Source of the DNA: a virus
DNA length: 10,683 nucleotides
Direction: 5' to 3' (one strand)
Virus genome (UHGV): UHGV-0105960
This document shows, piece after piece, positions 5,787 through 9,460 of the stretch. Both the position numbers and the translations under genes were made by a program. How positions within the stretch are numbered: the stretch's first letter is position 1; each line of letters starts with the position of its first letter. The notes below the pieces were generated by a model. That model saw only the letters and a list, made by a program, of their open reading frames with translations, did no database searches and was not told the origin of the DNA.

Positions 5787-5996
5787 ATGTCAAAAAATCC
5801 ACGTACCCCTAAATTTAAAATCGGCGACATTGTTTATTTGGTTTCAGGCGGCCCGGCGATGGCTGTTCAGGAGCCAATCATAAACAGCTTTGATGTTTTT
5901 GTTGGTGATTACTGGTGTCAGTGGTTTTCAGGAAGGAAGCAAGAAAGAGCCAGATTTCCAGAAGAATCACTGACTGCTACCAACCCAAAGCCGTAA
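5787..5996 (+). CDS. Small DUF2158/YodC-like protein (69 aa), opposite-strand moron gene
   Basis: ATG at 5787 with AAGGAAG Shine-Dalgarno at 5776..5782. Motifs GDIVYLVSGGPAMAV and CQWF resemble the DUF2158 signature (GDxVxLKSGGPxMTV ... CxWF). AT-richer than the flanking late genes; strand opposite to the late operon. Confidence 0.65.
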   Translation: MSKNPRTPKFKIGDIVYLVSGGPAMAVQEPIINSFDVFVGDYWCQWFSGRKQERARFPEESLTATNPKP

Positions 5997-6031
5997 ACCC
6001 AAACGCACTCAAGTTGTCTCTTACAGACGTG

Positions 6032-6280
6032 ATGAAGTGGATGATGGCTCAGTTAGAATATGACGGTTGCCTGTATCAGGAAGACGTAGTTGATTATTTA
6101 GTCAAACTCGATAATGAGCAGTTTCTGAAAGAAAATGCTGATGGTAATCTTGTTTTATCTACACCTGTCATTACCCAATTCCGCAAAGTAAGCGGTGATA
6201 AAGTGGTTTGGGTTAAGCCTGAACGATATTGGCGTTATCGCGTTAATGAAGATGAGCCTGGTCGCGAAGCGCGCGGGTAA
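6032..6280 (+). CDS. Hypothetical 83-aa protein, second moron gene (start uncertain; a GTG at 5915 with GGTGA upstream would give 121 aa)
   Basis: Open frame MKWMMAQLEYDGCLYQEDVVDYLVKLDNEQFLKENADGNLVL..., same strand as and 36 nt after the DUF2158 gene, followed by a hairpin plus T-rich tract. No convincing Shine-Dalgarno before ATG 6032. No family recognised. Confidence 0.5.
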   Translation: MKWMMAQLEYDGCLYQEDVVDYLVKLDNEQFLKENADGNLVLSTPVITQFRKVSGDKVVWVKPERYWRYRVNEDEPGREARG

Positions 6281-6322: not shown

Positions 6323-6406
6323 GACGAAATCACAGTCCGGTTTTGCCATAATTTTGTCCTCGCCTTGACATTATCGAGCCACCTCTGGAAGTGGCTCTGT
6401 AATGCC

Positions 6407-6874
6407 TTACTTCAGGCATTGCGTGGTGATGTATTCCTGCAGGGCTCTCAGGGCTGTTTGGTCGCTGAGGATTCCGGATCGGATACCGAGAACGTTTCGT
6501 CCAGCAACTGCAGAGAGTTCGACGGTGGCATCATCGCCCATGCTGGAGGCGCCGGTGGTTTGGGTTGAGGCTGACACTGGACATTTGCCTTTGACGAGCA
6601 CCCGACCACCATTATCAAGCTTGCGCTGCAGAGCATCATTTTCAGCTTTTGCATCGGCTAATTCCTTCGTGTATTTGGCATCGAGCGCTGCGACGTCTCT
6701 CTGACGGGTCTGCATGTCAGCGATGGTGTCTTTCGCCAGGCTGAGCTGCTCAGTCACTTTATCGCGCTGCCTTTTGAACTCGGTGGCGTTGTCATGGTAG
6801 TGGCTAGCCAACCATCCGAGACTGACTATCAGGCAGATCACAATGGCGCTGATAATGGTAGTTAATCGGCTCAT
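6407..6874 (-). CDS. Rz: Rz i-spanin (inner-membrane spanin subunit)
   Basis: Start ATG at 6874 overlaps the endolysin stop (ATGA). N-terminus [21 protein letters not shown]...[26 protein letters not shown] closely resembles lambda Rz (MSRVTAIISALVICIIV...[26 protein letters not shown]). The ORF-track start at 6892 is a TTG extension. Confidence 0.92.
6448..6654 (-). CDS. Rz1: Rz1 o-spanin (outer-membrane lipoprotein), embedded within Rz in the +1 frame
   Basis: ATG at 6654; [21 protein letters not shown] has a signal peptide and lipobox (VVGC), followed by a Pro-rich segment [16 protein letters not shown]. Similar to lambda Rz1 (MLKLKMMLC...VVVGC...PPPPPAW). Entirely nested inside Rz. Confidence 0.88.
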
Positions 6875-7374
6875 TTCTGCCCCCACAAACAAACTTCACG
6901 CTCAATCTCGCGGCGAGTTACCAGGCCTTTCCACTGCTTGCCCTTGGCGTAAGTCCAGCGGCGCAGCTGGTCGCACGCACCTTTCTGGTCGCCCTGGTTG
7001 ATTTTGCGCAGCAGCGTGGAGGTCTGGAAGTTTCCAGCGCCGACGTTATACGCGAATGAGTACAGAGCCCCGCGCATTATTTCGGGGATCGGCTTCTGGA
7101 TGTATGGGTTAATCTGGCGGGCAACGGTGTTCAGGTCTTTGCTGAGTAGCGCACGGCATTCAGCCTCGGTGTACTTCTTGCCGAGCATGATATCTTTGCC
7201 AGTGTGGCCATAACAGACCGTCCAGACGCCTACCACATCCTGATAAGGAACATATCGCACACCTTCAAGACCATCGTTACCGGTTGGGCCAGTGATGAGC
7301 GCAGAGGCAATGGCTATGGCGCCACCGCCGCCGGCGATCACGCCAATCAGTTTATTCCTCATTGATGGCGTCAT
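6871..7374 (-). CDS. SAR endolysin (phage lysozyme, phage 21 R / P1 Lyz type, GH24-like)
   Basis: N-terminal Gly/Ala-rich weakly hydrophobic segment [25 protein letters not shown] (signal-arrest-release domain), then [25 protein letters not shown] carrying the E-D-T catalytic residues. Near-collinear with recalled phage 21 R. ATG at 7374 with GGGGTGA Shine-Dalgarno aligns with the R21 start; the GTG at 7380 is probably not used. Confidence 0.92.
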
Positions 7375-7376
7375 GC

Positions 7377-7691
7377 TCACCCCTGTGTATCACTTGCGAT
7401 CCGCTTCAAGGCCTCGGTTACCACTTCGGCTGAAGCCGGGCGGTCACCTCCAGGCTTTGCGGAGACATCAGCCAGATAACTGGCCAACAGCTGCGTGCGT
7501 TTTTTCTCTTCATCCAGTCGCTCTCGCTCTTCCTTGCGCTTTGCGTAATACGTCTTGATTGTGAAGAAGGCAGAGATCAGGGCGCCAATGATGAAGACAT
7601 AATCCTGCAGACTCAGGACGGAAAAGATACCAAGCAAGGCTGACCACCAGTAAGGCAGATTGTGACCATCGGTTGGGTTCATACGTTGCAT
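7377..7691 (-). CDS. Holin, class II (two predicted TMDs), with dual-start motif; possible pinholin
   Basis: ATG at 7691 preceded by GGAGGTGA. N-terminus MQRM gives two in-frame starts separated by an Arg (lambda S-like holin/antiholin arrangement). Two hydrophobic helices ([30 protein letters not shown]) and a charged C-terminus. The stop overlaps the endolysin start region. Confidence 0.8.
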
Positions 7692-7799
7692 CTCTCACCT
7701 CCGATAATGTTCGGGGTGCTATCTGTAGTCAGTAAAAGGTTCAGGGCCGTCGGGCTGATTTACCAACAAAGCGTCGAGGGTGATTCCCGCGACCCTGAA

Positions 7800-7826
7800 A
7801 ATAAAAAAGCCTGCGGTTAGGCAGGC
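7800..7826 (-). terminator. Intrinsic terminator (minus strand) between the tRNA pair and the holin
   Basis: Perfect 6-bp GC-rich stem GCCTGC/GCAGGC (7809..7814 / 7821..7826) with a 6-nt loop, followed on the minus strand by UUUUUUAUUUU. Confidence 0.55.
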
Positions 7827-7960
7827 AATAAGCATGAGGGTAATAGCAATGTCGGTGATGACCGAAAATACCCTAGCTGGGTCTGGCGGCCTGTGACGCT
7901 GTTGCAGCAACGCCCCTGATAAGTTGGGGTATGAACCCGTTATCAGGTCAGGCCATTATC

Positions 7961-8037
7961 TGGTGCACCATTCAGGACTCGAACCTGAAACCGATAGCTT
8001 AGAAGGCTATTGCTCTCTCCGGTTGAGCTAATGGCGC
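7961..8037 (-). tRNA. tRNA-Arg (anticodon UCU), CCA-encoded, phage-borne
   Basis: Minus-strand sequence GCGCCAT-TA-GCTC...GAGC-A-ATAGC-CTTCTAA-GCTAT-CGGTT-TCAGG-TTCGAGT-CCTGA-ATGGTGC-A-CCA folds as a canonical cloverleaf: 7-bp acceptor stem (one G-U), anticodon loop C-U-[UCU]-A-A, T-loop TTCGAGT. Differs from host argU as I recall it. Confidence 0.85.
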
Positions 8038-8042
8038 TAATT

Positions 8043-8117
8043 TGGCGGGACAGGAAGGATTCGAACCTTCGACCATTCGGTTAACAGCCGAACGCACAAC
8101 CGCTGTGCTTCTGACCC
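8043..8117 (-). tRNA. Probable tRNA-Asn (anticodon GUU), CCA-encoded; one acceptor-stem mismatch, possibly degenerate
   Basis: Minus-strand sequence GGGTCAG-AA-GCAC-AGCGGTT-GTGC-G-TTCGG-CTGTTAA-CCGAA-TGGTC-GAAGG-TTCGAAT-CCTTC-CTGTCCC-G-CCA: cloverleaf with anticodon loop C-U-[GUU]-A-A and T-loop TTCGAAT, but a T-T mismatch at acceptor pair 4:69. Lies 5 nt from the Arg tRNA. Confidence 0.6.
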
Positions 8118-8124
8118 TGAAATG

Positions 8125-8149
8125 AAAAAGGCCGCGAAATAGCGCAGCC
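8125..8149 (-). terminator. Intrinsic terminator (minus strand) immediately upstream of the tRNA pair
   Basis: On the minus strand: GGCUGCG-CUAUUU-CGCGGCC (7-bp stem with one U-G pair, 6-nt loop) followed by UUUUUCAUUU. Confidence 0.55.
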
Positions 8150-8182
8150 CTTAATGCTTTATGGTTTTGCCTGAATTAGGCG

Positions 8183-8209
8183 AAAAAAAGCCCGCTCAGA
8201 GGGGCGGGC
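8183..8209 (-). terminator. Intrinsic terminator (minus strand), candidate tR'-like late terminator
   Basis: On the minus strand: GCCCGC...GCGGGC GC-rich 6-bp stem (8190..8195 / 8204..8209) followed by a run of 7 U (8189..8183). Confidence 0.6.
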
Positions 8210-8487
8210 AGAAGGTAGGAAATACTGATTCTTCAACGGTTCGAGGCGCACCTAATAGTCCGAGCTTCCGATTTACCAGGAGAGCGCTCGTTTTCCGTTA
8301 CTACCTTTTAAACATAGCTGGAGAAGCCGAAACGGCAACCCCACTATCAAATAGCTTATGTAGCATTGCATTATGGTGCCGGGTGCCTCCCGGTGAGCAT
8401 GTCCCAGTCGACATGGCCCGCGCTGCATTTACAGATCACTGTAAGTGACTGGTCGCCCCTCCGCATAGGGGGATTCACCACACGAAT

Positions 8488-8517
8488 AGATTAACAACAT
8501 GTTAATTTTCTGGTCAA
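8488..8517 (-). promoter_or_regulatory. Candidate sigma70 late promoter (pR'-like) downstream of Q
   Basis: On the minus strand: -35 TTGACC (8517..8512), 18-bp spacer, -10 TAATCT (8493..8488). The -10 match is weak; this is a sequence-only prediction. Confidence 0.25.
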
Positions 8518-8573
8518 TAAGATATAAGCAAATGATGACATGCAGTTTTCTTATTGCTGAGTAACTTCAATCT

Positions 8574-8641
8574 GGTTCAGGGCTCTGCGCGGAAGGGCTT
8601 TGACGTGTCGTGCAGCACGTCTCTACCCAAGAGCCCTGACC
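8574..8641. repeat. 68-nt nested imperfect palindrome (outer 12-bp arms with one bulge, inner 6-bp GACGTG/CACGTC stem)
   Basis: GGTTCAGGGCTCT (8574..8586) pairs with AGAGCCCTGACC (8630..8641); inner GACGTG (8602..8607) pairs with CACGTC (8616..8621). ORF-free; lies between the Q stop and the candidate late promoter. Confidence 0.5.
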
Positions 8642-8654
8642 GGATCGCAGGCAT

Positions 8655-8681
8655 AAAAAAGCCCCGGCGGATTGCCGAGGC
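8655..8681 (-). terminator. Intrinsic terminator (minus strand) about 90 nt downstream of the Q stop
   Basis: On the minus strand: GCCUCGGC-AAUCC-GCCGGGGC hairpin (8 bp with one mismatch) followed by UUUUUU (8660..8655). Confidence 0.5.
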
Positions 8682-8770
8682 TAATTTTACAAACTGGTAT
8701 ATGACTATCATCTTCATGCCGCCACTTAAAGTTAAGGCAGCATATCAAAGTAGACTCAAATATGACGTAT

Positions 8771-9460
8771 TTAATTGACTTTTGCAAGACCCTGCTGCGA
8801 AAAAGTCGCTTTTTGTTGTGATCGTGTTCTCACAGCACAGAGAAGAGAGTCGCTATCAAGCCGCTTAAAAATGGCGCACATAGCCCGCCAGTAATCAGCG
8901 TAGTTATGGCACCAGTTATCAGGCTTAACGCCACACAGGGCTGCAAGGTCCTGGTGCTGATATACATACTTACCCGCCAGCTCTGCTTTCACGTCCTGTG
9001 CCGCCAGCCATATCAGTTTCTTCAGCCGCTCCATCGTCTTGCCGGCCACTTTCTTAGCGCCGAGTTGATCACGGAATTCTTCCCATGCCCACTGTGTTAT
9101 CGCTACCTGATACTCAAAGCGGATATTGTCGCTGTAGTTCCACAGCAACCAGGATTTCTGGTGGTCTTCCAGCGACAGGAGGGCGCGGCGCCAGCTGGCT
9201 GTCGAGTATTCAACGGGCAGAACGAGAGCGATTGAGGAACCCTTAGCGCGGGACTGGCTGCCGCTCATCGGCGGTCCATCCGGGTTAACCATTTTTTGCT
9301 TCACCTCGCTATACACCTTCTTCCGGCCACGGCTGCGCGCCGTAGCGGTAAATTGCGCGTTCTCTGCAAAAGCTACCAGTTGCCCTTTCGTCGCACCACT
9401 CAGATCGGCGGTGGCCACTATCAGCTGCTGGCGAACAAATTCCAAGTATTGAGCTGTCAT
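8771..9460 (-). CDS. Late-gene antitermination protein Q-like (229 aa)
   Basis: ATG at 9460 with GGGAGAAG Shine-Dalgarno. Canonical lambdoid position: after rusA and the ylcG-position ORF, before the terminator/tRNA region and lysis genes. Size resembles the larger Q-like proteins of cryptic E. coli prophages. Family assigned by synteny and recall only. Confidence 0.6.
   Translation of the reverse strand: MTAQYLEFVRQQLIVATADLSGATKGQLVAFAENAQFTATARSRGRKKVYSEVKQKMVNPDGPPMSGSQSRAKGSSIALVLPVEYSTASWRRALLSLEDHQKSWLLWNYSDNIRFEYQVAITQWAWEEFRDQLGAKKVAGKTMERLKKLIWLAAQDVKAELAGKYVYQHQDLAALCGVKPDNWCHNYADYWRAMCAIFKRLDSDSLLCAVRTRSQQKATFSQQGLAKVN

Follow-up and report, generated by a model that had tools for sequence, protein, structure and literature searches.

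A tRNA-Asn(GUU)/tRNA-Arg(UCU) gene pair as a probable promoter-less, terminator-gated cassette in the late operon of a lambdoid prophage

The stretch of viral DNA considered here, UHGV virus genome UHGV-0105960 (10,683 nt, all of it referred to below as the window), carries a pair of transfer RNA (tRNA) genes, tRNA-Asn(GUU) followed by tRNA-Arg(UCU), on its minus strand between the gene for the antiterminator Q and the lysis genes. Both are probably functional elongator tRNA genes, and their sequence and surroundings point to a promoter-less, modular cassette in the late operon of an Enterobacterales lambdoid prophage, which would be transcribed when Q allows RNA polymerase to read through the terminators in front of it. 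Members of this cassette family are widespread in Klebsiella, Enterobacter, and E. coli prophages.

Gene calls were made with ARAGORN, and the genes were scored against the Rfam tRNA model RF00005 with cmscan (gathering score 29). Exactly two tRNA genes are called in the window, both on the minus strand: Asn (gtt) at 8043–8117 and Arg (tct) at 7961–8037, separated by the 5-nt spacer AATTA (8038–8042). The original prediction, made from the sequence alone, had placed a UCU/GUU pair here with this spacing and with a T-T mismatch at acceptor pair 4:69 of the second tRNA; ARAGORN and Rfam agree with it on the genes, including the gtt anticodon of tRNA-Asn, and cmscan flags U4-U69 as the one non-standard pair in that gene. 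The scores are 67.5 bits (E = 2.5e-13) for tRNA-Arg and 63.9 bits (E = 2.5e-12) for tRNA-Asn. In the same test the E. coli tRNAs asnT, argU, thrU, thrT, glyT, and tyrU range from 53.4 to 74.6 bits (asnT 72.6, argU 72.1), so neither phage gene looks like a pseudogene. Both align to the full model, departing from it only at U4.U69 and A8 in tRNA-Asn and at G3.U70 in tRNA-Arg, and both have the 7-bp acceptor stem, three arms, 7-nt anticodon loop with U33, and GTTCGAATC-type T-loop of a bacterial elongator tRNA, with the CCA end encoded in the gene. The minimum-energy fold of tRNA-Asn is a cloverleaf in which 4:69 is the single open pair; its D, anticodon, and T stems are perfect and its T-loop is canonical.

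The elements by which the host synthetases would recognize these tRNAs are intact. E. coli asparaginyl-tRNA synthetase (AsnRS) reads the anticodon G34 U35 U36 and the discriminator G73, and tRNA-Asn has GTT at gene positions 33–35 and a 3' end of ...CCC-G-CCA. For arginyl-tRNA synthetase (ArgRS) the identity elements are A20, C35, U36 or G36, and A or G at 73. The D-loop of tRNA-Arg, AACCGGAGA, has an A after GG, its anticodon is TCT, and position 73 is a purine, an A in this copy and a G in certain of its relatives. The anticodon loops match those of host asnT and argU (CUGUUAA and CUUCUAA, respectively), and tRNA-Asn shares G73 with asnT. Elsewhere they differ: argU has G73, like related phage copies, where the window tRNA-Arg has A73, and asnT has U4-A69, U8/A21, and U1-A72 where the phage tRNA-Asn has U4.U69, A8/U21, and G1-C72.

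Protein families in the window were assigned by Pfam and PHROG searches. Read along the minus strand, the genes are NinB (C-terminal part), YbcO, RusA, Q, then about 1.1 kb of non-coding sequence, a putative holin, lysozyme, Rz, the small and large terminase subunits, and head genes. Q (8771–9460, 229 aa) matches PF06323 Phage_antiter_Q with E = 1.1e-79. The putative holin, first gene of the lysis cassette (7377–7691), has a weak match to PF16080 (2e-05) that is below the cut-off for that family, while lysozyme (6871–7380; PF00959, 9.6e-46) and Rz (6407–6892; PF03245, 6.8e-29) are clear. The pair thus belongs to the late strand, with Q on one side and the lysis genes (7691–6407) on the other, as had been proposed, in a slot that is a known site for accessory genes in lambdoid phages. 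Within the non-coding stretch the order is a promoter-like site with a terminator, a long hairpin, a match to the STnc100 family, two terminators, the two tRNA genes, a structured trailer, and a last terminator. Related cassettes were collected by a pattern scan of viral contigs for the Asn gene, which gave at least 120 loci. Among the matches listed, a scope that applies to the counts of related loci given below wherever it is named, a lysozyme homolog lies downstream in 65 of the 69 loci with enough flanking sequence, and a Q homolog upstream on the same strand in 55 of 72.

The closeness of the upstream terminator to tRNA-Asn argues against a promoter belonging to the cassette itself. Two intrinsic terminators stand in tandem before the tRNA genes on the minus strand, the first at 8183–8209 (hairpin 8209–8190 with six G-C pairs, followed by TTTTTTT) and the second, which abuts tRNA-Asn, at 8120–8152 (hairpin 8152–8127 and T-tract, -14.7 kcal/mol, z = -4.1). 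A third follows the cassette at 7800–7826 (hairpin 7826–7809 and TTTTTT, -11.2 kcal/mol, z = -3.4); its stem has another sequence in phages GZ7 and Mulock, with pairing kept. The terminators predicted on both sides of the pair are therefore there, and terminator-like sites are in excess in the region as a whole (6, against 1.8 +/- 1.3 in shuffled sequence). The T-tract of the abutting terminator ends 3–7 nt before the +1 of tRNA-Asn. So short a gap has no room for a promoter, and were a -10 element to sit in the T-tract, transcription would begin within the tRNA. A GC hairpin with a T-rich tract ending about 7 nt before the tRNA occurs in 109 related loci with 66 unique upstream sequences (among the matches listed); the tract contains a run of at least four Ts in 57 of the 66 and is TTTGTCGTTTC in the other nine. 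Because at least 10 different stem sequences are found at the same place, it is the structure and spacing that are conserved rather than the sequence. Phages Mulock and Kp4882-1 have a different neighbor against their first tRNA, namely the long hairpin element found at 8652–8565 in the window, which likewise leaves no space for a promoter.

A consensus scan found no promoter-like site between 8660 and 8117. The sole such site in the region is at 8711–8684 (ATGATA-16-TAAAAT), and one match is no better than chance, with 1.1 expected. Together with the terminator hairpin at 8682–8660 it makes up a minus-strand feature (8660–8711) that may be the late promoter and the end of the early operon. 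The start predicted for this site falls in the 5' arm of the hairpin; transcripts arriving from upstream would terminate there, and those starting at the site could not form it. The best candidates found by hand for a promoter of the cassette itself, TTGACC-18-TAATCT (at about 8516–8487, where it would belong to the STnc100 element) and the 8711–8684 site, were both rejected because they lie upstream of terminators. With no promoter of its own and a terminator against its first gene, the cassette would be transcribed only by a polymerase that ignores terminators, and in a lambdoid late operon this is most likely the Q-modified enzyme.

The sequence of events suggested by this arrangement is as follows. 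Transcription from upstream, consisting of a late promoter and a leader with the STnc100-type small RNA (sRNA), would normally stop at the tandem terminators (8209–8190 and 8152–8127). After induction, Q would make RNA polymerase resistant to termination, so that it reads through into tRNA-Asn(GUU) and tRNA-Arg(UCU) as part of the late transcript and then runs on, past one more terminator, to the genes for lysis and the head. Release of the tRNAs would be by host RNase P and 3' trimming, the CCA being already encoded, and their charging by host AsnRS and ArgRS, to supplement or replace host tRNA-Asn and the AGA-reading tRNA-Arg during late protein synthesis. A cassette gated in this way predicts that the tRNAs are made strictly in dependence on induction.

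The phage origin of the pair is clear from its distribution. In 27 complete E. coli chromosomes the 821 bp around it recur, 99.9% identical, within a prophage and between Q and the lysozyme gene, and some form of this locus is present in 97 of 5426 E. coli genomes, never on plasmids. None of the E. coli genomes covers the window in full (59% at best), which is what a mosaic lambdoid phage leads one to expect. Klebsiella phages Kp4856-1 and Kp4862-1 carry the pair at 100% identity, and it is 99.4% identical, and annotated, in GZ7, RCIP0034, and RCIP0098; GZ7, which carries the tRNA-Asn, was obtained as infectious virions from sewage. In the E. coli prophages both tRNAs have already been annotated by PGAP. 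An exact-pattern scan of one genome per species found tRNA-Asn of this type in 18 species representatives, in the genera Klebsiella, Enterobacter, Citrobacter, Serratia, Pantoea, Erwinia, Cedecea, Atlantibacter, and Lelliottia.

The composition of the cassette varies around tRNA-Asn. The survey finds Asn by construction, which does not hold for its position, and among the matches listed Asn is always the first gene in the 111 loci with this tRNA-Asn clade. Asn stands alone in 43 of the listed cassettes, with Arg(UCU) in 31, and with Thr(UGU) in 25; six are Asn-Gly(UCC)-Thr and three Asn-Gly-Thr-Arg, besides others. Phage Mulock has Asn-Phe-Thr-Arg, with AATTA-type spacers between its four tRNAs, and Kp4882-1 has Thr-Arg without Asn. 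Spacers are 5–6 nt, like those in the tRNA arrays of large virulent phages. In ST11-VIM1phi8.1, the Arg gene present in the window has been lost through a deletion that extends exactly from one CCA end (Asn) to the next (Arg), and this, with the varying compositions, indicates that tRNA units are gained and lost whole. Among the matches listed, tRNA-Asn is the gene that is kept when its partners are lost; a few related cassettes are without it.

The cassette is routine prophage cargo of a known class, the tRNA genes of the lambdoid late region, and its own genes already have annotations from PGAP and in GenBank phage records. Clusters of tRNA genes in the slot from Q to lysis date back to 933W. 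The position had been likened to that in Stx-type phages, and the record for phage 933W bears this out, with ileZ-argN-argO annotated between Q/pR' and stx2; the full order there is pR', qut, two terminators, ileZ-argN-argO, and stx2AB. As in the Stx2 phages (933W; PMC7946995), the window has CCA-encoding tRNAs on the late strand, between Q/pR' and lysis and behind terminators that Q would override, with terminators on both sides; like the 933W cluster, it includes an AGA-type tRNA-Arg(UCU). It differs from this archetype in three ways: it has no promoter of its own, it is built around tRNA-Asn, and its tRNA sequences are different. 933W has Ile2/Arg/Arg where the window has Asn/Arg, and argO is 75% identical to the window Arg gene. 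The putative 933W promoter pT lies 10 nt upstream of ileZ and about 125 nt after the preceding terminator, in a space of about 160 nt between the last terminator and ileZ; in the window, where the terminator abuts the tRNA, it has no counterpart. There is also no toxin gene after the window cassette.

Arrays in P1/P7-type, T4-like (RB51), N4-like, and 7-11-like phages also have tRNA-Asn(GUU) beside Thr(UGU) or Arg(UCU), with 2–6 nt spacers. RB51 has Asn then Arg, as in the window, and phage 7-11 has the reverse; the 7-11 Asn shares A8/U21 and a non-Watson-Crick 4:69 pair (U.G). The P1/P7, RB51, N4-like, and 7-11-like arrays have another genomic context and another regulation, not being behind a terminator read through with Q, and identity over the pair is only 73–79%. 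A literature search of incomplete coverage found no paper on the Asn/Arg cassette, its terminator abutment, or its acceptor-stem features.

Several observations weigh against the reading given above. The late promoter has no firm location, its one promoter-like match being at chance level, and some expression of the cassette in lysogens through leaky terminators is possible. The G3.U70 pair of tRNA-Arg could compromise its exclusive charging with arginine. The remaining points concern the benefit of the tRNAs, for which the original prediction had pointed to the rarity of AGA in enterobacteria. AGA is indeed more frequent in the late genes of the window than in 34 genes of E. coli K-12 (3.1 against 1.0 per mil), but the early genes are richer still (10.3 per mil); they precede the cassette on its strand, and their expression comes earlier. 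Asn codons are used about as often as in the host (42.7 per mil, host 37.8), with the host's preference for AAC. Among the matches listed, AGA is scarcer downstream where the Arg gene is present than where it is absent (3.1 vs 5.4 per mil, p = 0.012), and upstream it is no more frequent. Of the other partners in the listed relatives, Thr is not accompanied by a rise of ACA in flanking genes, and Gly has a weak GGA signal upstream only (p = 0.03, n = 8). This comparison within the family uses short flanks and related loci. The rare-codon rationale is thus weak. Codon supply is at best a partial and weakly supported explanation, and it does not explain Asn.

A different benefit, tentative but the chief rival on this point, is counter-defence, in which the cassette would replace host tRNAs cut by defence nucleases such as AriB of PARIS and P2 Old, the phage tRNA-Asn being resistant. 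Toprim nucleases of the AriB/Old type would be carried by elements that exclude lambdoid phages, and a resistant tRNA-Asn would sustain late translation. AriB cuts the E. coli tRNAs for Lys (UUU), Thr (UGU), and Asn (GUU), recognizing U39, position 41, and U16, and is neutralized by the T5 versions of these three (PMC12409363). P2 Old cuts tRNAs with a paired CNG at 28–30 and 40–42, above all tRNA-Thr(UGU), for which a phage tRNA-Thr rescues; tRNA-Asn(GUU) is also a substrate, and 'Arg' is given in that paper at the amino-acid level only (PMC12445682). The window tRNA-Asn shares the GUU anticodon with a host tRNA that is cut, and the recognition motifs are altered. Host asnT has UAAUCC (its first U being U36), U16, and an in-register CGG/CCG at 28–30 and 40–42, and the phage tRNA has UAACCG (C39), C16, and UCG/CGA at 28–30/40–42, with no in-register CNG. 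In having the anticodon of a cut host tRNA together with changed bases (39, 16, and the CNG register), it resembles the published anti-PARIS and anti-Old tRNAs.

The partners of tRNA-Asn lend some further support. Thr(UGU) is the commonest among the matches listed, and has G39 rather than U39. In a minority of cassettes, of the Mulock type (L152:1456-1613, L004:1312-1631, and related viral contigs), the anticodon stem of tRNA-Thr(UGU) is shortened by a G27.A43 mismatch, and CNG is lacking; a shortened stem and the absence of CNG are the two features to which the resistance of phage tRNA-Thr to P2 Old has been attributed (PMC12445682). The adjacent Asn-Thr pair also recurs in P7/P1-like (PMC5786510) and N4-like phages, and Asn codon use, as noted, offers no rationale in terms of supply.

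On the other side, tRNA-Lys(UUU) is the primary target of AriB, without which the published attempts at rescue failed, and tRNA-Asn(GUU) a secondary one (PMC12409363), and tRNA-Lys(UUU) is in none of the lambdoid cassettes seen among the matches listed. The commonest Thr and Gly genes of the cassettes retain paired CNG motifs. Host argU has neither the AriB nor the Old motif, so counter-defence does not explain the Arg gene. The phage tRNA bodies differ from those of the host at many positions, making chance loss of a 3–4 nt motif not improbable, and late expression gated by Q may come too late against nucleases triggered early. The published anti-nuclease case is a virulent phage with 24 tRNAs, where this is a temperate lambdoid type with one to four, without Lys(UUU), and known here from sequence; the T5 Asn gene is only 63% identical to the window tRNA-Asn. 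If counter-defence did hold, temperate lambdoid phages may carry minimal anti-nuclease sets of tRNAs, with Asn kept and Thr a frequent partner, which would bear on why a few tRNAs persist in temperate phages whose codon usage matches that of the host. The proposed mechanism of expression by Q read-through is independent of whether supply or counter-defence is the benefit.

The acceptor stem of tRNA-Arg (GCGCCAU/AUGGUGC) raises a separate question of identity. Its first pairs are G1-C72, C2-G71, G3.U70, and C4-G69, with A73 in the window copy. G3.U70 is present in all of the roughly 30 copies of this Arg type among the matches listed; host argU has G3-C70 and G73. Relatives of the gene in virulent siphophages have A3-U70, so the wobble pair may be an evolutionary intermediate. 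Besides the 3:70 pair, identity for alanyl-tRNA synthetase (AlaRS) is supported by A73 and G2-C71. Of these, A73 is present in the window copy and replaced by G73 in others, and pair 2:71 is C-G, not G-C. Identity swaps of the late 1980s reportedly included a G3:U70 variant of E. coli tRNA-Phe that was charged with alanine by AlaRS, and this variant presumably had the same first four acceptor pairs and discriminator as the window tRNA-Arg. G3.U70 is given as the principal identity mark for AlaRS in the abstract of PMC8583063, and a single C70U change in yeast tRNA-Pro leads to Pro-to-Ala mistranslation according to the abstracts of PMC8583063 and PMC5389508. A dual identity for tRNA-Arg(UCU), with the arginine determinants A20, C35, and U36 on an AlaRS-type acceptor end, is an unlikely reading. 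The resemblance is in one AlaRS determinant and does not make the gene a tRNA-Ala, since the anticodon and A20 are those of tRNA-Arg. Were AlaRS to charge a measurable fraction, AGA would be read ambiguously as Arg or Ala in late lytic growth, and the gene would be a natural mistranslating tRNA from a temperate phage.

It had also been suggested that the pair, being bracketed by terminators, may be an autonomous unit; it would then have its own promoter, be insulated by the terminators, and be expressed in the lysogen for the benefit of the host, for example for the AGA codons of acquired genes. Besides the flanking terminators, the putative pT annotated for the 933W cluster would fit this, as would leakage of terminators, with an sRNA promoter (STnc100 family) probably firing upstream in lysogens. 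The 3–7 nt between the T-tract and the +1 of tRNA-Asn, the empty promoter scan from 8660 to 8117, and the abutment kept in at least 109 loci among the matches listed, with Mulock and Kp4882-1 likewise lacking space for a promoter, speak against it, and an autonomous unit is quite improbable.

The unusual features of tRNA-Asn deserve separate consideration, since the original prediction allowed that the acceptor mismatch might reflect degeneration or a sequencing error. The gene, including U4.U69, is identical in at least 85 loci from independent assemblies, and sequencing error is ruled out because of this. Among 20 unique variants of the lambdoid clade, pair 4:69 is U.U in 13, U.G in six, and U.C in one, and never Watson-Crick. 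The tRNA-Asn of phage Mulock is only about 65% identical but keeps U4.U69, while 6:67, 7:66, and its other stems have changed on both sides. U.U at 4:69 occurs also in several unrelated lineages of phage tRNA-Asn, some of which have it at 5:68 too. The second oddity, A8 in place of the near-universal U8, is matched by U21 rather than A21. Of 37 unique phage tRNA-Asn sequences, 21 have A8/U21 and 11 have U8/A21, with two exceptions, and the A8/U21 type spans at least three different D-arm types. This covariation points to a swap within the 8-14-21 tertiary interaction. For U4.U69 and A8 the independent evidence is of modest depth, most copies being near-identical.

Decay of tRNA-Asn to a pseudogene, with the U-U pair and A8 as damage and only tRNA-Arg functional, would account for the non-Watson-Crick pair and the absent U8, and an E. 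coli prophage copy of the gene (L001:9404-9478) is further weakened by an acquired G3.U70. It is nonetheless very unlikely, and was rejected along with sequencing error. The score of 63.9 bits is within the range of host tRNAs, with perfect stems, a canonical T-loop, G73, and CCA; position 4:69 stays non-Watson-Crick (U.U, U.G, or U.C) over 35% divergence while neighboring pairs compensate; A8 covaries with U21; Asn is the gene retained where others are lost, as in the 43 listed cassettes with Asn alone; and phages obtained as infectious virions, GZ7 for example, carry the gene. U4.U69 and A8/U21 are therefore read here as tolerated or selected properties of a presumably working tRNA; with G3.U70, they offer natural variants from which studies of the structure and identity of tRNAs could benefit. 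The idea that the pair is a host chromosomal tRNA locus beside an integrated element can be dismissed, even though prophages often integrate at tRNA genes and argU is the attachment site of DLP12, since the phage genes are only 64% (tRNA-Asn to E. coli asnT) and 74% (tRNA-Arg to argU) identical to those of the host, are internal to the prophage, in the Q-to-lysis stretch of its late strand, are present in the linear genomes of isolated phages, and occur in just 97 of 5426 E. coli genomes, all in keeping with the phage cargo that was predicted.

The rest of the non-coding stretch contains several further elements, all on the minus strand. The match to the STnc100 family of prophage sRNAs (8316–8510; Rfam RF02076, 79.7 bits, gathering score 47) is a strong one. 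It precedes the tRNAs and stops short of the tandem terminators, and the leader transcript of the late promoter may include it. The family is prophage-borne and related to PasD (bioRxiv 10.64898/2026.05.13.724894), and copies are found just downstream of stx2 in Stx2 phages (PMC12370729). After the first terminator following Q comes the long hairpin element already mentioned, GGTCAGGGCTCT...AGAGCCCTGAACC with an inner GACGTG...CACGTC hairpin (8565–8652 in the window; L004:1226-1311 in a relative). It directly abuts the first tRNA in Mulock and Kp4882-1, so that the window resembles their arrangement with an insertion of about 450 bp containing the STnc100 match and two terminators. The motif GCCCTGAACC recurs at 7746–7737.

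Six nt after tRNA-Arg there is a 71-nt element ending in CCA (7884–7954; fold -33.5 kcal/mol), with a 6-bp acceptor-like stem closing two hairpins followed by G-CCA, so that it resembles a tRNA without a T arm. Over 22 variants, 88% of cells are paired, against 29–51% with slid partners, and two of the helices show compensatory changes. Some related cassettes lack the element, as though it too were a module. The trailer was also considered as the site of a third tRNA, which was rejected, since Rfam (E <= 10) and ARAGORN (70–80% thresholds) gave noise only. A protein-coding role for the trailer was likewise rejected: a 63-aa open reading frame (ORF) starting with TTG (7719–7910) has no PHROG or Pfam match, as is also the case for a 95-aa plus-strand ORF at 8161–8448, and the 63-aa frame has 4-nt and 7-nt indels in relatives.

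Three ORFs found between Rz and the small terminase gene are on the plus strand and so run against the late genes (5787–5996, 5915–6280, and 6365–6568, the third overlapping the Rz gene). They match PHROG families without assigned function (E = 8e-16, 6e-44, and 7e-17, respectively) and are candidate accessory genes. An inverted repeat on the minus strand (7738–7800), situated between the last terminator and the holin gene, surrounds a conserved core, CGGGAATCAYCCYCGAC..GCTTTGTTGRTAAATCAGCCCG, and could be an RNA structure or a protein-binding site. It is found as two sequence types, the arms pairing in each; two of 12 unique variants are chimeric, with the pairing broken.

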